Shown here piece by piece: positions 4,479 through 19,906 of a stretch of DNA of 64,000 nt. Position numbers and translations under genes: made by a program. The notes beneath the pieces are model-generated. The model did no database searches, had not been told where the DNA came from, and saw only the letters and a program-made list of their open reading frames with translations. The stretch is from Patescibacteria group bacterium (GTDB lineage Bacteria; Patescibacteriota; JAQUNI01). Location: assembly GCA_028717685.1 (NCBI GenBank), contig JAQUNI010000001.1, positions 207,451 through 271,450 of the forward strand, read 5' to 3'. Position 1 is the stretch's first letter. The number at the start of each line of letters is the position of its first letter.

Positions 4479-6788
4479 ATGTTCCAACGCTCAAGGTTAG
4501 AAATTCAAAACACCAAACTGCTAATTTCTAATCCTAAGGTGCGCGAAGGCTTGTGTAATGTTTTTATTTTTGAACCTGAAAGAGGGAAAGAAAACTTAGG
4601 AGAGCTTCTTATTCTTGTCAAAATTGAGGAAGACAACAGAGATAATCGGGAGATCGCCCAAGGAATCGTGGAAATTGTAAAAAATGAATTTTACCGCGAC
4701 GCGGAAAAAAATCCCGAAGAAAATTTAGAAGCTAGTTTGGTGAAAATTAATGAGATTCTGAAAGAGTTAGCCTCTTTAGGCAAAGTGGCTTGGGTGGGCA
4801 AGTTGGACGCAATCATCGCTTGTCTCCAAAACAAAAAGCTAATTTTAACCCAAACAGGAAAAGCCTTGTCTCTTTTGGTCCGCGATGGCGAGGCTAGTTT
4901 TATTACGGAAGGACGAGAAGAGGAAAAAGAAGGTCAACCCCTTAAAACTTTCAAGGGTTTAACCTTCGGTCTTTTGGAATCTAATGATCACCTTATTCTT
5001 TCCACTGCCACTTTATTTGATTTCTTCTCTCCGGCAAAACTCATCCAAATCCTCTGCCGCGGCACCTTAAAAGAAGCAAAAAATTATCTGGAAGAATTGC
5101 TCAAGGAGCAGATTGAGACGGAAATGGTGGGGACAATCCTTGTCTCCCTAAAACGAATCCAGTCTAAAAAATCTTTCAAACAAGAAGAAGGACAATTATC
5201 CGCTTTAGAAAAAATCGGCAGGCTTGAGGATTTCCCTGAAGCAGTGGAGATGGCAACAGAGGAAGCGGAAACTCAAACTGATTTCCTGCAAGCGGTGGAT
5301 AAAAGGCTGGAAGCAAAAAGAAGGGGTAAGTTTCCTTTTTCCCTCTTTCACACTCTCAAAAGCTCCCTCTTGATTTTAAAACAAGGAAGGCGATCTTTCT
5401 TTAAATATGCCATTAAAATACTCCAATCTCTATGGCGGTTCATCCTTTTTCCTCTCCTTCTTCTCCTTAAGAAAATATTTTCACTGTTTCCCGTCCTTTG
5501 GAAAAAACTCCTGCCCCTCTTCAGGAAAGTAAAGGGTTTCTTGGCGCGCAAAAAGATAAAAACTCCAAGCGTCACCCCCATTCAAACTAATCAGGGAATA
5601 ACCACCAAATTATCCTTTGTAAAATACATTCCGGGATTGATCAAACCGATTTCTCTCCGCCTGCAAGCTGTTCCTCTGCGAAGCAAAATAATTCTTTCCA
5701 GCCTGATCGTCGCGCTATTATTCCTTGCTTCCGGCATCATCTTCCTTAAAAAATATCATTCCCCAAAGCCCCAAGCCGCGCAAGGCGAGGAAACAATTCT
5801 CCAAGAGGCCGAGGGCAAAAGAAAAGCGGCGTTAGACGCGATGGTTTACAAAGACGAAAAGCAAGCAAGGGAACTTCTAGAAGAAGCGGACAGCCTTACG
5901 GGTCAAATTTTGGGTTCGTCCACGCATCGCGAAGAGGCAGAGAGTTTAAAAAACGCAATTGTAGAGCAATTTGACAAGATGGATAATATCACCCGCATCA
6001 CAGAACCAGCGCTTATATTTAATGTTGACCAAATTAACTCTGATTTCAATCCATTAGACTTAATTGGCTTGGAGAACGGTCTCTACGCTCTCTGCAACCC
6101 TAACAATATCATCCTCCGCCTTGACCCGCAAAAGAAAGAAGCAGTCCAACTCTCGCCCAGTTTTAATGATATAGGCTACCTCGTCCGCGCTTCCCAGATT
6201 GATCAAGGAAAAAATATCCTCTTTGTCAACGCCGATAACAAATTTTCCCTTTTTGATTTTAATTCCTTTAAAATTGAACCAATCAGCGCAGAATCCCCCT
6301 TAGAGCCCAACAATATTCAGGATTTAGCTGAATATTCCAACAAAATCTATACCCTCAATCCTAGTGAAAACCAAATCGTGAAATACACGCGCACGATTGG
6401 GGGCTTATCCAAAGGAAGCTTATGGCTTTCTGAAGGCGATATTAAAAATGGCGCTTCTTTAGCAATTGACGGCGATGCCTATGTCTTGACCCTTAATGGT
6501 GAAATCTTGAAATTTCGCGCGGGAAAACAAGTGAATTTCAATAAAGCCGCAATCCAGCCCGCTCTGGAAAAACCCACGAAAATTTTCACGCGATTAAATG
6601 ACAAAAATCTCTATCTTGTTGACCCCCCCACGCGGCGCATTATTGTTTTGGGAAAAAACACGAGCGAAGTGCTCCGCCAATTTACCTCGGACAAGTTTAA
6701 CGACCTTAAAGATATTTGGGTAGCACCGGATGAAAAAATAATTTATGTTCTGGCGGGCAAAAGCGTCTATCAGATAGAAAACAGGTGA
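4479..6788 (+). CDS. hypothetical large membrane protein (769 aa)
   Basis: Long ORF; internal hydrophobic segments (LFPLLLLLKKIFSLFPVLW; ILSSLIVALLFLASGIIFL); C-terminal repeat-like beta-rich region; no recognisable catalytic motif. Confidence 0.5.
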   Translation: MFQRSRLEIQNTKLLISNPKVREGLCNVFIFEPERGKENLGELLILVKIEEDNRDNREIAQGIVEIVKNEFYRDAEKNPEENLEASLVKINEILKELASLGKVAWVGKLDAIIACLQNKKLILTQTGKALSLLVRDGEASFITEGREEEKEGQPLKTFKGLTFGLLESNDHLILSTATLFDFFSPAKLIQILCRGTLKEAKNYLEELLKEQIETEMVGTILVSLKRIQSKKSFKQEEGQLSALEKIGRLEDFPEAVEMATEEAETQTDFLQAVDKRLEAKRRGKFPFSLFHTLKSSLLILKQGRRSFFKYAIKILQSLWRFILFPLLLLLKKIFSLFPVLWKKLLPLFRKVKGFLARKKIKTPSVTPIQTNQGITTKLSFVKYIPGLIKPISLRLQAVPLRSKIILSSLIVALLFLASGIIFLKKYHSPKPQAAQGEETILQEAEGKRKAALDAMVYKDEKQARELLEEADSLTGQILGSSTHREEAESLKNAIVEQFDKMDNITRITEPALIFNVDQINSDFNPLDLIGLENGLYALCNPNNIILRLDPQKKEAVQLSPSFNDIGYLVRASQIDQGKNILFVNADNKFSLFDFNSFKIEPISAESPLEPNNIQDLAEYSNKIYTLNPSENQIVKYTRTIGGLSKGSLWLSEGDIKNGASLAIDGDAYVLTLNGEILKFRAGKQVNFNKAAIQPALEKPTKIFTRLNDKNLYLVDPPTRRIIVLGKNTSEVLRQFTSDKFNDLKDIWVAPDEKIIYVLAGKSVYQIENR

Positions 6789-6944
6789 ATTTTTAATTTT
6801 TATTCCTTATTTTTTAACTAATTTTTATTGAATTATTGTTTTATTTGTGATGTCAATAAAAATTTCTGCCCAAGGCGGATCAGCCTAGGGCTGAAAGAAA
6901 CAAAAATTCGTTAAAAATTAAAAATCAAAAAATAAAAATTATAA

Positions 6945-6968
6945 AAACAGCCTCTTAACGCTGTTTTT
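6945..6968. terminator. bidirectional intrinsic terminator between the 4479..6788 gene and the convergent sortase gene
   Basis: Hairpin AACAGC-CTCTTAAC-GCTGTT flanked by A-run and T-run. Confidence 0.55.
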
Positions 6969-6981
6969 GTTTAGTTTAGTT

Positions 6982-7593
6982 TTATTCCACCAACCTTCCT
7001 TTAACAACAAGTCTCTTAAGTGGCGTTCCAACCGGCCAACAAGTCATTAGGGAAATGGTGGGCTCGGGAGTGGATGCTAACACCTGCACTTCATTTTCGG
7101 AAACAATTATTTTATCAATGACTCTATATAAATATTCTTTACCTTGATAATATACTTTGATTTCGTCATTTATTTCTAATTTACCCAAGAGAGCGAAAAT
7201 ATCTTTATAATCTCCTTTGCGCCAAATATAATCTGATGAATGGCCAAGGATAAAATAATTCCCTACCTCCCCTGAATTTGCCGTCCCGGGATAATGGACG
7301 ACGCCGTTCTCCAGACCCTTTTGAATCGTGCTCTCTTGGCTATTTTCCACCTCAACGACTGGCACATTCACATTAATCTTAGGGATGATGAGCCGAGTTT
7401 CCGCTGGAATCCCCTCCTCGCGAGAGGGCTTCTCTAAAATAGTCCGGATTACTTCCGCCTTGGGATATTTAGAATAAAAATAATATTCCGCCTGCTTCAT
7501 CAAAGCCTGATAATTGATCACTCCAAAAACTACGGCTAAAAACAAAACCGCGTAGATTATTCTTTTAATTAAACGGAGGGGGTGAAAAAACAT
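6982..7593 (-). CDS. sortase family transpeptidase
   Basis: N-terminal TM anchor; catalytic His motif ILGHS; active-site Cys in LMTCWP (TLxTC-like). Confidence 0.75.
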   Translation of the reverse strand: MFFHPLRLIKRIIYAVLFLAVVFGVINYQALMKQAEYYFYSKYPKAEVIRTILEKPSREEGIPAETRLIIPKINVNVPVVEVENSQESTIQKGLENGVVHYPGTANSGEVGNYFILGHSSDYIWRKGDYKDIFALLGKLEINDEIKVYYQGKEYLYRVIDKIIVSENEVQVLASTPEPTISLMTCWPVGTPLKRLVVKGRLVE

Positions 7594-7633
7594 AGAAAAT
7601 AATTAACTATTCTAATTATACCAAACTTAGAAT

Positions 7634-7666
7634 AAAAAATCACCTCATACTCTGGAGGTGATTTTT
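7634..7666. terminator. bidirectional intrinsic terminator downstream of rplL
   Basis: Hairpin ATCACCTC-ATACTCTG-GAGGTGAT flanked by AAAAA and TTTTT. Confidence 0.6.
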
Positions 7667-11585: not shown

Positions 11586-12203
11586 AAACGAAAACCCTGG
11601 CTCTTCGGTAATTTCAAAATCATCTTCACTTATCTTTTCCAATCGCGTCATTGTGCAAGCATAAGGCGAGCCCACGGGAATGACCATCACCCCGCCCACT
11701 TTTAACTGCGCTTTTAAAGCTTTAGGAATATTGACGGCCGCCGCCGCCACAATAATGCGGCCATAAGGTGCCGCTACCGGATGCCCCTTCCAACCATCGC
11801 CTAAAATAAATTGAACATTGCGGAGACCTAATGCTTTGACATTTTTCTCGCCAAACTCTTTTAATTCCGGAATTACTTCTAGGGCGTAAACTTTCCCTTT
11901 GGCGCCAACAATATGCGCGAGCAGCCCTGTCTGCCAGCCAGAGCCTGAACCCACATCCAAAATCTTATCTCCCCTTTTCGGAGCGAGCATCTCCAGCATA
12001 ATCGCGACGGTCAAGGGCTGGGAAATCGTCTGACCAAAACCAATGGGCAAAGGGGCGTTAATTTCCGACTGTTCGCGCAGATCCTCTGCGCTTCTACCCT
12101 CCCTGGGGATAAAACGAAAGCGAGGCACTCTTCTAAATGCCTCAATGATCCGCGGTGTGCGCAAATGCCCTTGACTGATTAGGGTCTCAATTAGAGCGGA
12201 CAT
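11508..12203 (-). CDS. pcm: protein-L-isoaspartate O-methyltransferase
   Basis: SAM-binding motif ILDVGSGSGWQT; PIMT signature TISQPLTVAIMLE. Confidence 0.9.
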   Translation of the reverse strand: MSALIETLISQGHLRTPRIIEAFRRVPRFRFIPREGRSAEDLREQSEINAPLPIGFGQTISQPLTVAIMLEMLAPKRGDKILDVGSGSGWQTGLLAHIVGAKGKVYALEVIPELKEFGEKNVKALGLRNVQFILGDGWKGHPVAAPYGRIIVAAAAVNIPKALKAQLKVGGVMVIPVGSPYACTMTRLEKISEDDFEITEEPGFSFVPLVKVQKAKCKRQNHSLKRKSYGS

Positions 12204-12500
12204 AATGATGTTTATAATCTATCACAAATTTCTTTCCGAATCAAGGGAAAGACCCCCTCTTGCCTCCCCCTTGGTAAGGGGGAGTGCCGCTCCCACCCCC
12301 TCTAGTGTCAGGTTCTTATAATGCGAGTTTCACTAATATAGGTCTGCATTCTGGCCTGCCGGCAGGCAGGCAGGCTCCATAATCCCCTCGCTTCGCTCGG
12401 GGATTATGGAGCTCCTTGACTTTTATCTTTGTATATTCTAAAATCAATGTGCCCTGAATATCCTTAGATCTTTACACTAATACTGAAAGGAGAGAAAAAT

Positions 12501-12827
12501 ATGTCTCAGGAAAAACCAAAGAGAAGGATTATGTCACAACTGGAATTGGAAGAGCTCACTGACCCAAAGATAGTTATGTCAGAAGAGGAACGAAAAAAGT
12601 ACACTGGCCTTCTATTTAAGTGCAAAAGAGTTCTCCGTGGTTTCGGCTGGCATTATCTGGAAGGTCCGAATGGCATTGGTAAAGATGGCACCTTGGCAAT
12701 ACTGCGGCTAATGTATACAAAGGGATTACCTGACCCACACAGTATACTACACACTATCCCTTCGTTCCTCTACACTCTAGAATATGTGATACAACTATTC
12801 AAGATGTATGAGGAAAAAATGGAATAA
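12501..12827 (+). CDS. hypothetical protein (108 aa)
   Basis: ORF with an upstream promoter-like TTGACT-17-TAAAAT (~12415-12445) and a downstream intrinsic terminator; no recognisable domain. Confidence 0.4.
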   Translation: MSQEKPKRRIMSQLELEELTDPKIVMSEEERKKYTGLLFKCKRVLRGFGWHYLEGPNGIGKDGTLAILRLMYTKGLPDPHSILHTIPSFLYTLEYVIQLFKMYEEKME

Positions 12828-12873
12828 GTGCTGCGGCATTAGATGTTAGTGATTTGACAAAACAAATGCCTTG

Positions 12874-12901
12874 ACCCACGGAATAAGCTGGGTCTTTTTT
12901 T
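12874..12901 (+). terminator. intrinsic terminator
   Basis: Hairpin GACCCACGGAATAAGCTGGGTC followed by TTTTTTT. Confidence 0.7.
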
Positions 12902-13222
12902 ATAATAAATACCTCCCACCCCCTCTTAATCAGAGGGTAAAAATCCTTGCTTTTTTTCTTTAGATATGATATAATATAACCATCAAGTACAAAGAGCTCG
13001 CCCCGTGTTTAAAGCGAGCTTTTCGGCTTTTTAGGGATGTCGTTCGAACGACATTCTAAAGACATCCTAAAGAACGGTGAGACCCGCCTCCGCTAAAGCT
13101 TCCCCCTTCGCTCACAAGCTTCGGGGGACAAGTCGGAGGGTGAGACCCGCCTGAAGCCGACTACGGCGAAGTAAATCAAAACAAAAAATATCCTGCTCCA
13201 AAATAAGGGTAGGACACATAAA

Positions 13223-14644
13223 ATGAATACCAAAACCATTCTCAAATGGTGCGTGCCGCGCAAGAACAATCAATACCAACCTTACGCTCTGCGTAAAAAG
13301 GCGCTTACCTTTTATGTCGCCGTGATTTTCATACTGAAGGCGAGCGTCGGTTTTTTGTTTTTCGCTTTTCCGGAAACCGCCTATCTCTCCCAAGTGAGCA
13401 TTAAAGAAATCGTAGACCTCGCGAACCAATCCCGCGCCGAGGTAGGCCTTGCTCCCCTTAAACTGAATGCCAAATTAAATATCTCGTCCGCGGGAAAAGC
13501 CGAAGATATGATGACGAAACAATACTTTGCCCATACCTCGCCCGAGGGCGTGGAGCCTTGGTATTGGTTTGAGAAAGCGGGCTATCCCTACACCTATGCG
13601 GGAGAAAATTTGGCTCTCGGTTTTGAAACAAGCGCGGGCGTGCATCAAGCCTGGATGAATTCTAAAGGTCATCGCGACAATATTATCAATCCTAATTACA
13701 AAGAGATTGGCGTCGCGATTATTTACGGCAGTTTTGAAGGCAATTTCACCACGATTATTGTTCAGCATTTCGGCTCTGTTGAATCCACAACTCCCCAAGA
13801 AGTCCCTGCCTATCCGCCTCCGAAAAAAGAAATACCCGCGCCGACCGCTCCGCCTCAAACTCCCGCTGGTGCCGACCGCACGGCTCCCGCTCCCCCGCGC
13901 ATTCTTACTCCCGCTCCCCGCTACCTGACGAATAATAAAGAAGTGACCATCACGGGACAAGCCGAAGCGGAAAGCACGGTTTTAATCTATGAAAAGAACG
14001 AAAAGATCGGCCAGACCAAAGCTACTAAAAAGAACCGCTTTAATTTTGCTTCCGCCTCTGATTTTTCCGATGGCGAACATTCTTTCCGCGCCATGGCGGT
14101 AGATAAAGCAGGAAACCGCAGCGCTTTCTCTAAAAGCGTGGCGGTGGTCATTGACACAACTCCGCCGGTGATTGATATGGAAAAATCATATATCCTGCCT
14201 ACTTATCTTAATCCGCTTAAAACCTTTGATGTCTTCGCTTATGTGACTGGCGAACCGGTGGAAGTCAAAGCCACTGCCGGTCAAAACGAGGTTATGCTCA
14301 AGGAAAAAGAGGCGCATCTCTATCGCGAAGTCATTAACCAATCCACTGGCGGGGTTTGGGTTCAAGCAAAAGATGCCGCCGGCAATATTACCAAAGCAAA
14401 ATTAAACTTTACCCAAAATGTCAGCAGTGAGCGCGACCTGCATCTGGTAGACTCCGACAATAGCTGGACGCTTTTCTTAAACACACTGGATCAAACTAGC
14501 CGCAATCTTATTATAGTCTTTAGCGCCGCGATTGCGATTCTTCTGCTTGTAAATATTCTTGTGCATATCAAAAAACAAAACAGTAAAACCATCAGCTCTG
14601 TCCTGCTGATTATCCTTATTAACGGTCTTCTCCTGGCGGTTTAA
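13223..14644 (+). CDS. secreted/membrane-anchored CAP (SCP/PR-1, YkwD-like) domain protein with Pro-rich linker, Ig-like region and C-terminal TM
   Basis: CAP motifs ...HTSPEGVEPWYWFEKAGY...GENLA...HQAWMNSKGHRDNIINPNYKEIGVAI...; PAYPPPKKEIPAPTAPP linker; C-terminal hydrophobic helix. Confidence 0.7.
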   Translation: MNTKTILKWCVPRKNNQYQPYALRKKALTFYVAVIFILKASVGFLFFAFPETAYLSQVSIKEIVDLANQSRAEVGLAPLKLNAKLNISSAGKAEDMMTKQYFAHTSPEGVEPWYWFEKAGYPYTYAGENLALGFETSAGVHQAWMNSKGHRDNIINPNYKEIGVAIIYGSFEGNFTTIIVQHFGSVESTTPQEVPAYPPPKKEIPAPTAPPQTPAGADRTAPAPPRILTPAPRYLTNNKEVTITGQAEAESTVLIYEKNEKIGQTKATKKNRFNFASASDFSDGEHSFRAMAVDKAGNRSAFSKSVAVVIDTTPPVIDMEKSYILPTYLNPLKTFDVFAYVTGEPVEVKATAGQNEVMLKEKEAHLYREVINQSTGGVWVQAKDAAGNITKAKLNFTQNVSSERDLHLVDSDNSWTLFLNTLDQTSRNLIIVFSAAIAILLLVNILVHIKKQNSKTISSVLLIILINGLLLAV

Positions 14645-14746
14645 TCTTGGTTATTCTTGGGGTTTTTAAAGTCGGAGCCTCAAAATAACAATAGTAAAAC
14701 CCGCCTTCGTCTAATAGACTTCGGCGAGGTAAAACAAAAACAAAAA

Positions 14747-14776
14747 AACACCCTTAAATAAGTAAGAGGGTGTTTT
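14747..14776 (+). terminator. intrinsic terminator (AACACCCT...AGGGTGTTTT family)
   Basis: Hairpin aacacccttaaataagtaagagggtgtttt; a near-identical hairpin lies at 19937..19965 after the last gene of the SipW locus. Confidence 0.6.
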
Positions 14777-14790
14777 AATTATTAAAAATA

Positions 14791-14820
14791 TTGACAGCAT
14801 GAAATAAAAAAGAATATAAT
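14791..14820 (+). promoter_or_regulatory. near-consensus sigma70-type promoter (TTGACA-18-TATAAT)
   Basis: ttgacagcatgaaataaaaaagaatataat; followed ~100 nt later by a terminator hairpin with no ORF between. Confidence 0.6.
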
Positions 14821-14826
14821 GGTAGC

Positions 14827-14925
14827 GGATAGGTAAATACCCCTCCCAAAAGAGTATGAGCTTATTCCAGCCTTCAGGGAGCCCTTGATTTTGAAGAAAG
14901 CTTCCGGAAGGCTTTTTATTATTTT
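14827..14925 (+). ncRNA. candidate ~100 nt small RNA (promoter-to-terminator unit, no ORF)
   Basis: Perfect promoter at 14791-14820; hairpin aaagcttccggaaggcttttt plus T-run at ~14897-14930; longest internal ORF 10 codons without an SD. Confidence 0.35.
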
Positions 14926-15092
14926 TTTAAAGAAACTGTGAACAACTTAAAACAAAAAACGCCTTTAAATAAACAAGAGAGTGTTTTAATAAAGCGAAAG
15001 GCGAAAAGTGTAAAACGTAAAACCGCAACTTAAAGCTCAAAGCTTTACACTTTGCGCTTTGCACTTTGCGCTTTCATCTGTGGATAACTTTT

Positions 15093-15121
15093 TGACTCCT
15101 TTAATCAAGATAGTATATAAT
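15093..15121 (+). promoter_or_regulatory. sigma70-type promoter (TTGACT-17-TATAAT) for the SipW-locus gene at 15437
   Basis: ttgactcctttaatcaagatagtatataat; leaves a ~300 nt leader containing several terminator-like hairpins. Confidence 0.55.
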
Positions 15122-15436: not shown

Positions 15437-16657
15437 ATGAAAAAAATTATTCTAGGCTTAGTTGCTGGGGTCGCTATAGTCGGCGGCGTCGTGGCGATGT
15501 CCGCCTTTGAGGCGCATGTCGTCAATGTTACCGCCAAGATTGAGAACGCGTTGGATGTACCCATTACAGAACTCGATTTTGGTACAGTCTTCCCAGAAGA
15601 AGTGCTCAACAAAACCATGGCTGTGAACTTAAGCGAATCGTTTATGGAGCAAGCCCAATGCAGTACGACAAGCATTATTGAAAATGGCGGGTTTGAAATT
15701 CCAGAAGTTACAAACCCTGCCAAATGGGAGACATTTCCTGTAGTCCCTGGTTGGAATATTACATGGGTAAATCCTGGAGATGCCCCTGCTCCTGCTTTGA
15801 TTGAATACCAGGCAGGTGTTAATGGTTGGAATTCTCATGAGGGTAATCAATGGACAGAGCTTGCCTCTGATTGGGGTCAAGCGCCAAACAGCTTGCCCAA
15901 TGACGCGCGGGTAATCATTTCCCAAGAAATATCAACCACAGTCGGCGCGAAATACACATTAACCTATTGGTATTCGGGCCGTCCGGGCCAGTCAAGCGCT
16001 GATAATATGATGGATGTAAGAGTAAATGGCATAACTAAACCATACGCAGAAAACAATCCCGGAGCCAATACGAATTGGAAAGAAGACAGCATTGAATTTG
16101 TCGCAACTGCCAGCACAACCAAAATTGAATTTCAAGGAACTGGAGCAAACCATACCTACGGAATGTTCCTAGACGATGTCAGCTTGGTTGAATGCGGTCG
16201 GGTCAGTACGGTTGATTACGTCTTGCGCCAGAAGCCCAAGTGTGTTGACGACAATAATTCTTCTATTCATCCCCAAGTCACTCATAACACAAATGGCGAT
16301 TTTGCTTGCCCTGAAGGTTCAACGATGATGCCCTTGCTCTGTCCTTATCTCTCTAAATCAGAAACAACGAATGATGGCGGCGAAGGGCAAAATAATGATG
16401 GTGTCGCGATTGCGGCCTTCCATGGCCCACTGACTGGATGGACAATGAAAAACACAGAAGACTGGCAAACTGGCGGCACATTATCCGCGGCGATCGGAGA
16501 CATTATGGATGAATGGTTAATTGATCTCCATGCCCCCTGCTTTAAAGGTATGTGCGCCCAAGACAATAAGATTGACCCAGAGTACCAAGCCGATCCAGCA
16601 CTTGAACACGCAGTCTTTGGCTGTGATCTCTGGCTGGAAGTGACAGGTATTGATTAA
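15437..16657 (+). CDS. secreted protein, candidate SipW-cognate substrate: signal peptide, conserved N-terminal strand (FEAHVVNVTAKIEN), TasA-like 'LDFG' segment, jelly-roll lectin-like (DUF642/choice-of-anchor-like) domain, C-terminal WLIDL...GCD motif
   Basis: Signal peptide MKKIILGLVAGVAIVGGVVAMSA; ENGGFE...W..F..VPGW jelly-roll pattern; C-terminus EWLIDLHAPCFKGMCAQD...GCDLWLEV shared with 19112..19906. Confidence 0.6.
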   Translation: MKKIILGLVAGVAIVGGVVAMSAFEAHVVNVTAKIENALDVPITELDFGTVFPEEVLNKTMAVNLSESFMEQAQCSTTSIIENGGFEIPEVTNPAKWETFPVVPGWNITWVNPGDAPAPALIEYQAGVNGWNSHEGNQWTELASDWGQAPNSLPNDARVIISQEISTTVGAKYTLTYWYSGRPGQSSADNMMDVRVNGITKPYAENNPGANTNWKEDSIEFVATASTTKIEFQGTGANHTYGMFLDDVSLVECGRVSTVDYVLRQKPKCVDDNNSSIHPQVTHNTNGDFACPEGSTMMPLLCPYLSKSETTNDGGEGQNNDGVAIAAFHGPLTGWTMKNTEDWQTGGTLSAAIGDIMDEWLIDLHAPCFKGMCAQDNKIDPEYQADPALEHAVFGCDLWLEVTGID

Positions 16658-16863
16658 GCTAATATAGCCAATTAACTAACACAGGTACAACCTTTAATTC
16701 CCTTTAGACAACTTTCATTGTTGATCGTTTCCCCTCTGCTCCTGCGCAAGGCGGACGGAGGGGAGGGATTAGTAATGAAATCATTAAAAAAATTATGCTT
16801 GAAAATAATTCGGAGGAAGAAAAGAACCCCGAAAACGAAGCGGAAAATCCAGTCCAAAAGTTA

Positions 16864-17307
16864 ATGTCCGAAAAGAAGGCAGAAAAGCCCAAAAGAAAAA
16901 TAAAGGTCGGGCGCATTATTGGCTATGTAATCATTGCAATTATCGCGGTCTTTATTGTTGTCCAGCTTTTGAGCGCTTCCTATTATAAGATGACTGTCAA
17001 TGTCGTGGAGGGTGAAAATGTGGTCGGGGTCAATCCCACGGCGGAAAAATTGGATTTTGGCGATCTTTCCCGCGGCAGTAGTATGACCCGCTACGTAACT
17101 TTAAAAAGTGCGGGAAAATCCCCAAGTTACATTATAGTCTGGAAATTTGGCGGCGTTGCCTCGCTCGTTAAGGTGGAAAAAAACTACTTTACACTTAATT
17201 CCAGTGAAGAGGTAAAAATTACTTTTTCTCTTACCATTCCTCCTTCCGCCCAAATCAAACACTATAACGGTCAAGTGATTATTTTCAAACTACCCAAGAT
17301 TTTCTAA
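16864..17307 (+). CDS. small secreted/membrane-anchored protein, candidate SipW-cognate (K-rich n-region, TM, 'YYKMTVNVVEGEN' strand, 'KLDFGDLSRG' segment)
   Basis: The track ORF starts at 16795; Met24 (MSEKKAEKPKRKIKVGRIIGYVII...) fits a signal-peptide n/h region better; start uncertain (see findings). Confidence 0.45.
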   Translation: MSEKKAEKPKRKIKVGRIIGYVIIAIIAVFIVVQLLSASYYKMTVNVVEGENVVGVNPTAEKLDFGDLSRGSSMTRYVTLKSAGKSPSYIIVWKFGGVASLVKVEKNYFTLNSSEEVKITFSLTIPPSAQIKHYNGQVIIFKLPKIF

Positions 17308-17313
17308 GTAAGT

Positions 17314-17805
17314 ATGAAAAAGATTTTGCAATATTTTCAAAAGCGTAAGGAAGAAAAATGCACACAAGCGGAAGAATTAAGTAAGAGGCAAAAAATTTTC
17401 CGGAAAGCTATCGGTTATCTATTTTATGTTGGGATTTTAATTGGACTCTTCTACGGTACACCCAAAATTCTATCCTATCTTCTAAATACTAAATATCCCT
17501 TTGCGTCAATTACATCGGGGTCAATGTGGCCAGTCTTAAAGAAGGGAGATCTCGCCTTAATCTGCGGCGTAGAACCCTCTGAAATCAAAACGAATGATGT
17601 TGTGGTTTTCCCTAATGAAAATGGCGCTTTAGCAATCCATCGGGTGATTAAAATAAATGGCGATAAAATTATTACCAAAGGCGACGCCAACACTAAAGAA
17701 GATAAACCTATTAACCGCTCCGACATCTTGGGTCGACTTTGCACAGTGGGTTCCCTTGAGGCAAAAATCCCAAAAATCGGATTAATCGCTCCACTTTTTC
17801 ACTAA
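17314..17805 (+). CDS. signal peptidase I, Sec11/SipW type (family S26B)
   Basis: N-terminal TM; Ser box SGSMWPVL (compare the SGSMEP box of Sec11/SipW-type S26B peptidases); KGDAN...D box; size ~160 aa typical of SipW. Confidence 0.7.
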   Translation: MKKILQYFQKRKEEKCTQAEELSKRQKIFRKAIGYLFYVGILIGLFYGTPKILSYLLNTKYPFASITSGSMWPVLKKGDLALICGVEPSEIKTNDVVVFPNENGALAIHRVIKINGDKIITKGDANTKEDKPINRSDILGRLCTVGSLEAKIPKIGLIAPLFH

Positions 17806-17812
17806 ATTATTT

Positions 17813-19090
17813 ATGCCAAAGATGAGTAGCAAAAATAAGTATTTGACTCTTGGTCTCCAAACACTAGGAATATTTATTGTTTTTGTTTTAGCTTTTTTCT
17901 GGGCAAATAAATCATTTGCTTATGAAGCGCATGTGATTGGCGTAACAGCGATGTTTCAAAATTATGTTTGCGGCGATGGCAATCTCAATCCCGGCGAAGA
18001 ATGCGATGACGGCAACAACACTAATGGCGATGGCTGTTCGGCGACTTGCGTCCTTGAGAAAACACCTAGTTGCATGAAAATTAACGAGGTCTATTACTAT
18101 CCAGATGATGCGCATGGCGGCGGGGATGCCGAATGGATTGAGCTTTATAATGCTTGCGAATATCAAGTTAATCTTAAAAATTGGTATTTGAAAGACAACA
18201 CTCAAACGGAAACCATCCATCAAAATTATATTATTGACCCCAGTCAATTTGTAGTTCTCGCGCCCAATGCTTCAATTTGGGAAAAATACTGGGATATTAC
18301 CCCTACGAACGCCATAAAAATCGCTTTGGGCGGCGGACAAAAAATGTTTAATAATCTAGCGAATGACGGCGATCGGGTTTTCCTTTATGATAATCACGAT
18401 AATGAGATTGACGCAGTAAGCTGGGGCGCGGATACAACCGCTTTTGACCCGAGCGTCCCCGGTGTTACCGAAGGTCATTCTATCGCCCGTAAAACAAAAG
18501 GTGTGGATACCGATACAGCAGACGACTGGGGAGATTTACCTACACCCAACCCGGGCACAAATCCCCATTCAACAATCCAAACAACTGTTCCTGAACCGCC
18601 CAAATTACAAACCAGTAATCTTAATATCGCTGGCGACAGCACGCCGATAATAACTGACACGACTGTGGGCGATGCCGATGATTCCACGCCCGCGACCAAG
18701 AATAACATAATAACCGACCCTGGCGATTCTACGCCCGCGACTGATACCCTTGAGGTAAAAGAACAGGAAGATATATCCCCTGCCTTAGAATCAAATGAAA
18801 ACCAAGAAGATAATGATAGCGCGGAAAATCCTGGTGAAACAGAAGATATTTCTCCTCCCTCCGGTTCTGATGACTCTCAAACCGATTTAACGCAAGAAGA
18901 CCCTGTAACAGACAATACGCCACCTGCTGCTAATAAAGAAGACATCAATAACACTGATTCATCTCTATCCCCGCCTGAAAATCCAGAGCCAGAAGAGGAA
19001 ACCAGTCCAACCAATAACCCAGAATCAAATTCTTCTTCTGAATCCCCTCCCCCTAACCCCGCAGAAGGTACGGAAAATAATCCCTCTTAA
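17813..19090 (+). CDS. secreted protein, candidate SipW-cognate: signal peptide, conserved strand (YEAHVIGVTA), Cys-rich repeat (CGDG...GEECDDGN..GDGCS..C), lamin-tail domain (INEVYY...EWIELYN), long acidic S/T/P/D/E-rich tail
   Basis: Motifs read directly from the translation; LTD signature INEV..EWIELYN..W.L.D; the tail is ~170 aa of low-complexity acidic sequence. Confidence 0.6.
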   Translation: MPKMSSKNKYLTLGLQTLGIFIVFVLAFFWANKSFAYEAHVIGVTAMFQNYVCGDGNLNPGEECDDGNNTNGDGCSATCVLEKTPSCMKINEVYYYPDDAHGGGDAEWIELYNACEYQVNLKNWYLKDNTQTETIHQNYIIDPSQFVVLAPNASIWEKYWDITPTNAIKIALGGGQKMFNNLANDGDRVFLYDNHDNEIDAVSWGADTTAFDPSVPGVTEGHSIARKTKGVDTDTADDWGDLPTPNPGTNPHSTIQTTVPEPPKLQTSNLNIAGDSTPIITDTTVGDADDSTPATKNNIITDPGDSTPATDTLEVKEQEDISPALESNENQEDNDSAENPGETEDISPPSGSDDSQTDLTQEDPVTDNTPPAANKEDINNTDSSLSPPENPEPEEETSPTNNPESNSSSESPPPNPAEGTENNPS

Positions 19091-19111
19091 ACTCTCTGTG
19101 TATATAATTTT

Positions 19112-19906
19112 ATGATTAAGTTTGACCGCAAATTAAAACGAGTCCTCTTTTCTCCCCAAGAAAAAAGTTTTAGGACTAAATTATTTATTTTCTTAACAGG
19201 AGCAATAACCCTCGTTTTATTTTTCTTCGTTCTGCAAGAAGAAACAACGCGCGTCTCGGCGCAAGCCTTGCCTATTGCTGTCTCAATGAATCATATTGAT
19301 TTTGGTTTGGTCTTTCCCGGGGAGAGTCTGGAAAAAAACTTTATTGTTTATCTGGCCAATGGTCAAACCGAAAAAGTAAATTACAGTTTAATTCAAAGGA
19401 GAAAGCCCCTGCCGCCTGAATCCAAAATTGAGGAAGATCCAAATATGCCCGGTTTCTATCGCGACCTCTGCCCCTTTCTCACCAAAACCACCAAAGAGGG
19501 GGAAGGTGATTTGGAAATCGCAGCGTCGGTGACACCCACCACTGATCTTACCGATAAATGGCTGATTGACTTGGCAGTACCAGCGTTGGAAGGCTATGTG
19601 GCTCAAGAACACGGTGATAAGATAGTGAAGATTGCCGGCGACTATGGCTGTGATATCGTGATTGATATTGAGTCGAATGGTAATGGTACAGACGGAAATG
19701 GAGCTGGCGGCGGTCCAGAATGGTTTTGGCAGGATATGAATCTTGCGGGAGCCATGGAAATAGCTACCTCTCCAATCAAAAAAGTTGTGCAGGCAGCAGT
19801 CAAATTACCGGCTAAACTCCCCCGCGTTGGCGCGTGGGGCAGCCTTATTGCCGCCTCAATGGGCTTAATCGCGACAGCAGCCTTTTATAGAAGGAATAAA
19901 AAGTGA
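19112..19906 (+). CDS. secreted protein, candidate SipW-cognate TasA/camelysin-like: signal-anchor, 'IDFGLVFPGESLEKNFIVYLANG' segment, WLIDL...GCD motif, Gly/Asn-rich segment, C-terminal hydrophobic helix plus basic tail
   Basis: IDFG..PGE...F.V.LANG resembles the TasA N-terminal NLKPGD...F.F.NNG; DKWLIDLAVPALEGYVAQE...GCDIVIDIE is shared with 15437..16657; C-terminus GSLIAASMGLIATAAFYRRNKK looks like a membrane anchor. Confidence 0.55.
   Translation: MIKFDRKLKRVLFSPQEKSFRTKLFIFLTGAITLVLFFFVLQEETTRVSAQALPIAVSMNHIDFGLVFPGESLEKNFIVYLANGQTEKVNYSLIQRRKPLPPESKIEEDPNMPGFYRDLCPFLTKTTKEGEGDLEIAASVTPTTDLTDKWLIDLAVPALEGYVAQEHGDKIVKIAGDYGCDIVIDIESNGNGTDGNGAGGGPEWFWQDMNLAGAMEIATSPIKKVVQAAVKLPAKLPRVGAWGSLIAASMGLIATAAFYRRNKK

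Follow-up and report, generated by a model that had tools for sequence, protein, structure and literature searches.

What kind of protein joins a lamin-tail domain (LTD) to a strand that it shares with a neighbouring subunit, and why does its gene follow a signal peptidase gene at a distance of a few nucleotides? The question is raised by the open reading frame (ORF) at 17813..19090 on the forward strand of a 64,000-nucleotide stretch of a Patescibacteria genome (assembly GCA_028717685.1, contig JAQUNI010000001.1, positions 207,451 to 271,450), which in its full length is hereafter called the window. Patescibacteria, for which the name Candidate Phyla Radiation (CPR) is also in use, are ultra-small, their cultivated members are obligate episymbionts, and their attachment to hosts or surfaces is a central open question in which, to our knowledge, only type IV pili have been implicated so far. 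The answer favoured here, at a confidence that we place near even, is that the LTD protein may be a TapA-like terminal or nucleating subunit, able only to donate a strand, of a CPR-specific and peptidase-dependent extracellular assembly.

The novelty of such a system would lie in its subunit family, which differs from that of the otherwise similar TapA/SipW/TasA organisation, in a new cognate N-terminal class and in the LTD end piece. In the literature searched, no paper links LTD with SipW, mentions the FEAHV motif described below or describes this system; among the papers listed by a search combining SipW, TasA and CPR/Patescibacteria, none mentions SipW, and a paper on Patescibacteria genetics mentions neither TasA, SipW nor lamin. 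The evidence is purely computational. It points to a second, widespread CPR surface-assembly system besides type IV pili, and it would place bacterial LTDs in a setting open to experiment, in which they would form the constant end piece of assemblies of FEAHV-type and TasA-type operons alike. Moreover, the nearly invariant 18-residue N-terminal strand offers an easy handle for annotation, peptide competition and multimer modelling.

Modules of the LTD protein

The ORF encodes 425 amino acids (aa), and the architecture described for it in the original prediction, an earlier note made from the letters of the DNA alone, was confirmed. Gene callers in public assemblies place the start at the second ATG (17822), which gives a product of 422 aa (P0001). 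The protein is divided as follows.

17813..17920, forward strand: aa 1-36, predicted signal peptide with the hydrophobic core LGIFIVFVLAFFW
17921..17959, forward strand: aa 37-49, YEAHVIGVTAMFQ, conserved N-terminal strand common to the FEAHV-core family
17969..18073, forward strand: aa 53-87, CGDGNLNPGEECDDGNNTNGDGCSATC, single Cys-rich acidic repeat of the TIGR02232/DUF4215 type
18074..18571, forward strand: aa 88-253, lamin-tail domain (PF00932) through its conserved PNPGTNPH end
18572..19090, forward strand: aa 254-425 and the stop codon, acidic low-complexity tail rich in S, T, P and N

All four modules that the original prediction had read in the protein are real: the strand and the tail are present, and the profile searches for the LTD and for the Cys-rich repeat both gave matches above cutoff. 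The Pfam LTD profile PF00932 matches aa 89-205 at 62.5 bits (cutoff 34.3) over profile positions 9-108 of 109, and the conserved columns E92, V93, E107, W108, E110 and N113 are common to 35 homologs in the alignment; a homologous LTD protein, P0005, bears the NCBI name 'lamin tail domain-containing protein'. The Cys-rich repeat is matched in one copy by TIGR02232 (myxo_disulf_rpt) over aa 53-87 at 49.1 bits (cutoff 20.8), with four Cys in the pattern C-x9-C-x11-C-x3-C; the Pfam model DUF4215 reaches 22 bits on the same segment, below its cutoff of 27, and in the PDB the repeat matches human pappalysin-1 at E 1e-4. Among the LTD homologs, P0018, P0025 and P0026 lack the repeat, P0007 and L013 have two copies of it, and P0005 has another domain in its place; the repeat is an optional spacer module. 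In the LTD subfamily, Cys87 and Cys114 occur together in 9 homologs, singly in none, and are both missing from 23, and because the pair covaries perfectly, a subfamily-specific Cys87-Cys114 disulfide is probable. The L013 ortholog, from a long-read Parcubacteria metagenome-assembled genome (MAG), is interrupted within 5232-7663 by a frameshift that parts an ORF with a FESHIINV strand from an ORF that holds two Cys repeats together with the LTD; the break probably stems from misassembly and does not mark a pseudogene.

The acidic S/T/P-rich tail, claimed at about 170 aa, spans 172 aa (aa 254-425) with 23% D+E, 26% S+T, 14.5% P, 11% N and 2% K+R; it carries a net charge of -36, within a protein of net charge -59, and is presumably disordered. 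Its low complexity, together with the probable metagenomic assembly of the window, whose genes are 100% identical only to proteins from MAGs or metagenome contigs, might suggest a chimeric ORF or a mis-assembled tail, an explanation to which next to no probability is given here. The tail DNA contains no tandem repeat according to Tandem Repeats Finder, from 17822 onwards the DNA of the LTD gene shows no difference from that in an independent Logan assembly (L011), and comparison with a 91%-identical ortholog in L009 gives a ratio of nonsynonymous to synonymous differences (pN/pS) of 0.26 in the tail, with two indels of 11 and 3 codons that are both in frame. A sequencing or assembly artefact, or a collapsed repeat, is therefore ruled out, and the concern voiced about the tail was not borne out, the tail being under purifying selection. 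Homologs of 39-62% identity likewise retain the architecture and the acidic tail, and 17 of the 24 LTD homologs that have the PNPG-type end motif carry a tail of at least 60 aa (median D+E 26%, K+R 2%).

The N-terminal strand and the FEAHV-core family

Signal peptide cleavage is predicted after Ala36 (KSFA/YEAH, the slash here and below marking the cleavage point), on the basis of the -3/-1 rule and of an alignment with 244 family members. The conserved strand YEAHVIGVTA, which had been noticed in the original prediction, begins directly behind this point at nt 17921, and when the 64-kb window is translated in six frames, only one further segment of its kind appears, AFEAHVVNVTA in gene 1 of the same operon (nt 15506); each of the two directly follows a hydrophobic signal segment ending in Ala. 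The strand is common not only to the gene-1 subunit but to its whole family: across 244 core sequences hardly any variation is seen in the 18 residues that follow the predicted cleavage, A/FEAHV[IV]NVTAxIENALxV, where position 10 alone is free, and they form the most conserved stretch of the FEAHV-core proteins, the rest of the core averaging about 40% column identity. Eleven LTD-type proteins match these core proteins (n=244) at positions 0-11, again with only position 10 variable, and diverge beyond them into spacer and LTD.

At the level of DNA, the shared codons of the gene-1 and LTD-gene strands differ synonymously, which rules out recent duplication or gene conversion as an event linking the two FEAH-coding segments; their likeness is therefore maintained at the protein level. 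The strand residues I5, V7, A9 and I/F11 alternate, as read from the sequence, to give one hydrophobic face, which is expected of an inserted beta strand. In AlphaFold2 (AF2) monomer models of two core proteins, the body is modelled confidently and the FEAHV strand stays below 50 in predicted local distance difference test (pLDDT), as would fit a segment without packing contacts inside its own chain. Residues 37-49 of the LTD protein are thus described here as a putative donor strand, a putative peptidase determinant, or both.

The N-terminus had further been called SipW-cognate, and in the classic sense of that term the label does not hold. TIGR04088 ('SipW-dependent-type signal peptide', cognate_SipW), which asks for a signal peptide followed by the mature N-terminus A/[FY]FSDxE..GN, matches neither the LTD protein nor gene 1 even at E<=10, while two positive controls from CPR TasA operons, P0016 at 24.5 bits and the TasA-like protein of L007 at 37.7 bits, pass its cutoff of 19. 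Membership of the LTD protein in TIGR04088 was rejected on these grounds, and its N-terminus is best classed as a separate, new cognate type, A/FEAHV[IV]NVTA.

The gene-1 family returned more than 294 matches in a word-indexed search, with the motif in 117 of the 120 matches listed, and comprises 691 clusters at 50% identity with E<=1e-3, or 530 with E<=1e-10; the source names are all Patescibacteria/CPR (Doudnabacteria, Ryanbacteria, Yonathbacteria, Parcubacteria). The core contains six conserved Cys, arranged with Cys pairs, and the motifs LCPYLSK, IDLxVPCFxGxCAQD and FGCDLWxEV; no Pfam or NCBIfam model covering it was found. These core Cys pairs, the covarying Cys87/Cys114 of the LTD and the Cys-rich repeat constitute an extracellular signature. 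The major subunits of the family accommodate swappable modules, namely a DUF642 insert resembling a carbohydrate-binding module (CBM) in the window and a VWA, SpaA-like (PF19403) or DUF1349 module, or none, in others, and one FEAHV-core protein (P0172) hosts an LTD.

Homology of the core with TasA/camelysin was considered and rejected. A Pfam scan of 20 core members gave no relevant family and no PF12389 (TasA/camelysin), a PDB sequence profile search with the core family gave no match, and hhalign of the core against CPR TasA alignments gave probabilities of 2.9% with small alignments and 0.5% with larger ones. Foldseek of the core AF2 model against the PDB gave nothing significant (best E 0.04), in what is a weak fold test at a query pLDDT of 71.8; the TasA fibre 8aur ranked 36th (E 0.31, TM-score 0.30), and the fimbrial AggA and CanA were found only as insignificant matches (TM-score <=0.3).

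The gene cassette and its recurrence in the CPR

The LTD gene is the fourth gene of an operon whose other elements are listed below; the intergenic gaps measure, in order, 137, 6, 7 and 21 nt, and no terminator-like site was found on the forward strand over 15437-19906.

14791..14820, forward strand: sigma-70-like promoter candidate upstream of the operon, TTGACA-18-TATAAT, 12/12, a consensus match only
15092-15121, forward strand: second promoter candidate, 11/12, likewise a consensus match only
15437..16657, forward strand: gene 1, putative major subunit of 406 aa, with signal peptide, A/FEAHVVNVTAKIENAL and a Cys-rich beta FEAHV core
16795..17307, forward strand: gene 2, 170 aa, with an N-terminal transmembrane segment and an immunoglobulin (Ig)-like beta domain of about 110 aa (YYKMTVNVVEGENVVGVNP...LDFGDLSRG)
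17314..17805, forward strand: gene 3, archaeal/endoplasmic reticulum (ER)-type signal peptidase I of 163 aa, with the motifs SGSMWP, IHRV and KGDANTKED
19112..19906, forward strand: gene 5, strand-less FEAHV-core paralog of 264 aa (core hidden Markov model (HMM) 5e-39, 27% identity to the family)

The peptidase of gene 3 scores 75.3 bits on TIGR02228 (cutoff 51.85) and fails the Bacillus SipW equivalog NF046067 (39 bits, cutoff 190). In the window 7 nt part the end of its gene from the LTD gene, and in every FEAHV cassette it directly precedes the LTD gene; this adjacency of LTD and a SipW-type peptidase is kept in six lineages. The full order, namely one or more FEAHV-core subunits, a transmembrane/Ig-like protein of 134-178 aa, a short peptidase, an LTD protein with the strand and, usually, an anchored strand-less core paralog, recurs in the window, L001, L004, L006, L008, L009 and L013 with an LTD identity of 39-91%, and the cassette is conserved in at least six CPR lineages; L004 is without the gene-5 equivalent.

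A parallel arrangement emerged when the LTD clade was scanned in one genome per GTDB species, which yielded 80 loci whose neighbourhoods were screened with HMMs. In the CPR loci L007, L012, L014, L017, L026 and L033, one or more TasA-family genes (PF12389/TIGR04088-type) are followed by a SipW-like peptidase and an LTD gene, and the short contig of L016 holds the peptidase and the LTD only. The LTD proteins of these TasA operons carry a TasA-type N-terminus; for example, the TasA of L007 has AYFSDKEESTGNTFTAG and its LTD protein SYFSDTETASGNTFTVG. In these CPR operons the N-terminus of the LTD protein copies the strand type of the local major subunit. Some CPR genomes encode peptidase and LTD fused in one ORF (L027, L029, P0029); if these fusions are real and not frameshift artefacts, the peptidase would cut its own C-terminal extension. 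For 68 of the 80 loci the screen detected neither a peptidase nor a TasA-like neighbour; most of the 68 lie outside the CPR (Chloroflexota, Ignavibacteria, archaea and others) and a few are labelled CPR, whereas the loci that have such a neighbour are almost all CPR-labelled, along with two Gammaproteobacteria-labelled contigs (L019 and L039).

In the CPR, then, operons for secreted subunits that depend on a peptidase are repeatedly accompanied by an LTD protein. The comparative search for LTD proteins beside SipW genes, which had been proposed as a check, thus returned a recurrent association within the CPR, in FEAHV-type as well as TasA-type operons. It also qualifies the description of the protein as an unusual fusion: the modules are as described, but their combination is not unusual within the CPR, where an LTD follows or is fused to a SipW-like peptidase in many genomes.

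The peptidase subfamily covaries with the N-terminal class. Peptidases of FEAHV cassettes measure 137-163 aa and those of classic TasA cassettes are longer, and a cassette peptidase HMM, built partly from the former, scores them at 4e-63 to 1e-72 and the classic ones at about 1e-20 to 5e-25. Such covariation, the existence of peptidase-LTD fusions and the definition of TIGR04088 itself as a signal class would all agree with FEAHV being a processing signal only, that is, a prime-side determinant of the dedicated peptidase, after which the LTD protein would be released, or held at the envelope by its LTD or tail, without involvement of the other products of the operon. This explanation is considered unlikely. 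Signal peptidases normally read few residues near the cleavage site, whereas 12-18 residues are nearly invariant here and have beta-strand periodicity, and the equivalent conserved segment in the TasA system is the donor strand (PMC9674648).

Genes 1, 2 and 5 supply the possible partners of the LTD protein. The FEAHV core of gene 1 is interrupted by the CBM-like DUF642 insert (32.3 bits), and its product is named 'DUF642 domain-containing protein' by NCBI (P0087); the AF2 model of gene 1 has a mean pLDDT of 86.8 with residues 23-35 below 50, and the top Foldseek matches of the full model, CBM4, CBM16 and CBM61, concern the CBM-like insert only. Gene 2 has sub-threshold profile matches only (choice_anch_D at 23.4 bits against a cutoff of 45; ASH, PapD-like, at E 0.011), has orthologs in the same position in L001, L004, L006, L008, L009 and L013, occurs in FEAHV-type cassettes only, and is possibly an assembly factor or an anchor. 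The stretch behind its transmembrane segment, YKMTVNVVEGEN, loosely resembles the AHVVNVTAK strand. Gene 5 is without the FEAHV strand, of which a degenerate remnant (..RVSAQAL..) is seen in the N-terminal region, and ends in LPRVGAWG, a transmembrane segment and RRNKK; equivalents with a C-terminal transmembrane segment and basic tail are found in L001, L008, L009 and L013, and gene 5 is regarded as a putative membrane or wall anchor that only accepts a strand. The end of gene 5 resembles a sortase sorting signal, but the motif varies among orthologs (LPRVGA, LGLATGG, VPALSPIG).

The conservation in the cassette of two membrane-anchored, strand-less beta-domain proteins invites a reading in which nothing polymerises: the strand would dock each substrate singly into an anchored acceptor, gene 5 or gene 2, and the LTD protein and the CBM-bearing proteins would be displayed as separately tethered monomers. 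The strand alone would suffice to tether the LTD protein in this manner, and the fold and profile comparisons of the core gave no evidence of polymerisation. Nevertheless, core subunits displayed singly would not need both the strand and a body of the anchor family, and the possession of both is a hallmark of head-to-tail assembly; moreover, the gene-5 equivalent is lacking in L004. Display without a polymer is accordingly considered improbable.

Beyond the cassette, the window contains the following features.

6982-7593, reverse strand: sortase gene (PF04203, 90.6 bits), about 12 kb upstream of gene 5 and on the opposite strand
13223-14644, forward strand: CAP/YkwD-like secreted protein that has a Big_13 Ig domain and, at its C-terminus, a transmembrane segment
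21030-22103, reverse strand: caspase-like secreted protein (Peptidase_C14, 42.9 bits), encoded downstream of the cassette and also present in L009
22298-23154, reverse strand: four tRNA genes in a cluster, Trp-CCA, Thr-GGT, Tyr-GTA and Thr-TGT

L007 encodes a sortase as well, one gene downstream of the LTD gene in its TasA/LTD operon. The CAP/YkwD-like gene keeps its place upstream of the cassette in L001, L009 and L011; a 23S_rRNA_IVP (PF05635) gene stands between it and gene 1 in L009 and L010, and none was called there in the window or in L011. A type IV pilin-like N-terminus is encoded at about 31453 on the reverse strand of the window, and in L006 several N_methyl pilin genes (11609-14986) follow a few kb downstream of the FEAHV cassette, upstream of which an LTD+TasA-like gene is located.

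A putative strand-donor end piece and known systems

The precedent for a strand-donating end piece is taken from Bacillus subtilis, in which TasA polymerises by inserting its N-terminal strand into the next subunit, and TapA has a mature N-terminus that is similar to the TasA donor strand and was predicted, and by nuclear magnetic resonance (NMR) shown, to be donated and thereby to nucleate filaments (PMC9674648, PMC10151520). The Ig fold of TapA itself is complete, so that TapA has no role in the filament past initiation (PMC9674648, PMC10151520). According to Earl 2020, as cited in PMC9674648, TapA is mostly dispensable for colony biofilm architecture and a fraction of its N-terminal residues is required. 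For the archaeal AbpB the same TapA-like role has been proposed, with its distal domains as adhesins, and PF12389 homologs occur in Patescibacteria (PMC9245690).

By analogy, the LTD protein would be exported and cut after Ala36, the predicted site, by the adjacent archaeal-type peptidase, which would expose the N-terminal strand YEAHVIGVTAMF, the strand found at the head of each subunit in the FEAHV-core family. Core subunits, each with a strand and a beta-rich body, could then be joined into head-to-tail chains through donor-strand complementation. In the LTD protein the strand is present and the core body absent; it would therefore donate and could not accept, and would occupy one chain end only, either capping the open groove of the last subunit or giving the first strand that starts polymerisation in the style of TapA and TasA. 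Gene 5 would be its mirror image, a core body without the strand and with a C-terminal membrane anchor. In the simplest geometry, gene 5 would form the anchor, gene 1 with its carbohydrate-binding-like insert the polymer and the LTD protein a distal cap, from which the Cys-knot spacer, the LTD and the long acidic tail would project outward and where the LTD or the tail may meet a ligand; a distal cap is preferred because gene 5 offers an anchored base.

The earlier suggestion of a subunit of a putative fibre fits the conserved operon, the strand held in common with the neighbouring subunit and the TapA/TasA precedent, whereas the fibre itself is something that we infer. The more specific suggestion of a tip adhesin is open to doubt: what stays constant in the cassette is the LTD, and the adhesin-like modules (CBM-like, VWA, SpaA-like, DUF1349) vary and reside in the major subunits, so that a conserved role in assembly, capping or nucleation fits better. 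The LTD as a DNA-binding tip, an idea derived from LTD nucleases, was found to be unsupported in a protein with a net charge of -59. For one such nuclease, ExeM, the LTD is dispensable for extracellular DNA degradation in vivo, and activity in vitro is reduced without it (PMC6085458).

Several considerations weigh against an end piece that donates its strand. The polymer and the fibre are themselves postulated; the conservation of the 18 residues could reflect recognition by a co-evolving peptidase or docking to a partner such as gene 2, and the covariation of peptidase and N-terminal class is equally expected of a motif that serves for processing alone. Neither in sequence nor in fold could a kinship of the FEAHV core with TasA/camelysin be detected, and the donor-strand mechanism therefore rests on analogy. 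Furthermore, TapA is thought to be cell-proximal, for which reason the distal-cap geometry is not secure, and for bacterial LTDs no function has yet been worked out (PMC6085458).

A strictly TapA-like alternative would reverse the geometry, with the LTD and the tail binding the cell envelope and the strand starting the first subunit, perhaps transiently. TapA acts as a nucleator in substoichiometric amounts and is associated with the cell (PMC10151520, PMC9674648), a role in guiding proteins to membranes or to structures associated with them has been proposed for bacterial LTDs (Mans 2004, as cited in PMC6085458), and the LTD module is constant in the cassette while the adhesin-like inserts vary. 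A cell-proximal nucleator or anchor of this kind is nonetheless viewed as a tentative possibility, and a rather doubtful one, given that a base is already provided by the separate membrane-anchored, acceptor-only paralog of gene 5 and that a tail with a net charge of -36 would be odd for binding to an anionic envelope. A broader form of the favoured strand-donor reading can be put forward only speculatively and with low confidence: the cassette may encode a CPR-wide, non-TasA donor-strand fibre with a gene-5 base, subunits with swappable inserts and an LTD cap, assembled by the peptidase and gene 2 as chaperone or platform, and may thus be a monoderm analogue of chaperone-usher systems for host or substrate contact by ultra-small episymbionts.

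Among known systems, the AbpB of the bundling-pilus operon of Pyrobaculum calidifontis, the FimH tip adhesin and the PapH terminator resemble the LTD protein as proposed here in that a one-sided donor-strand subunit with extra domains defines the end of a fibre (PMC9245690). They have no homology to the LTD protein, and the polarity of chaperone-usher pili, in which the tip adhesin only accepts and the terminator is the strand donor, is opposite to the favoured geometry. The LTD cassette system has neither usher nor periplasmic chaperone, because CPR cells are monoderm. Similarly, the nucleases ExeM, Xds and NucH and the LTD-phosphoesterases are secreted and contain a PF00932 domain (PMC6085458); unlike these enzymes, the present protein has no catalytic domain, and its LTD is joined to a fibre-type N-terminal strand and an acidic tail.

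The likeness to TapA (YqxM, encoded by tapA-sipW-tasA) extends to a minor secreted protein whose gene stands beside those of a dedicated ER/archaeal-type peptidase and a major subunit, to a mature N-terminus that mimics the strand of the major subunit (here YEAHVIGVTA as compared with FEAHVVNVTA in gene 1), and to the apparent inability to accept a strand, which in TapA lies in its complete Ig-like domain and here in the lack of a core body. No homology to the TapA domain (PDB 6HQC) was found, phmmer against all PDB chains giving only pappalysin through the Cys repeat. The two differ in that an LTD and a Cys-rich repeat stand in place of the V-set/macroglobulin-like domain of TapA, the partner subunit is not of the TasA family, the gene order is subunit, transmembrane protein, peptidase, LTD and anchor, and a membrane-anchored acceptor-only paralog is present in addition.

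Finally, the LTD proteins of CPR TasA operons (P0016 in L007; L012, L014, L016, L026, L033) belong to the same clade (INEVYY...EWIELYN...PNPGTNPH) at 35-55% identity, and like the present protein they are encoded directly after the peptidase, copy the strand of the local subunit and possess an acidic tail. Their N-terminus reads A/YFSDTExxSGNTF and is recognised by TIGR04088, in contrast to A/YEAHVIGVTA here, which is not; their operons also differ from the FEAHV cassette in having PF12389 partner subunits and longer peptidases, and a gene-2-type transmembrane/Ig-like protein is a feature of the FEAHV cassette and not of theirs.

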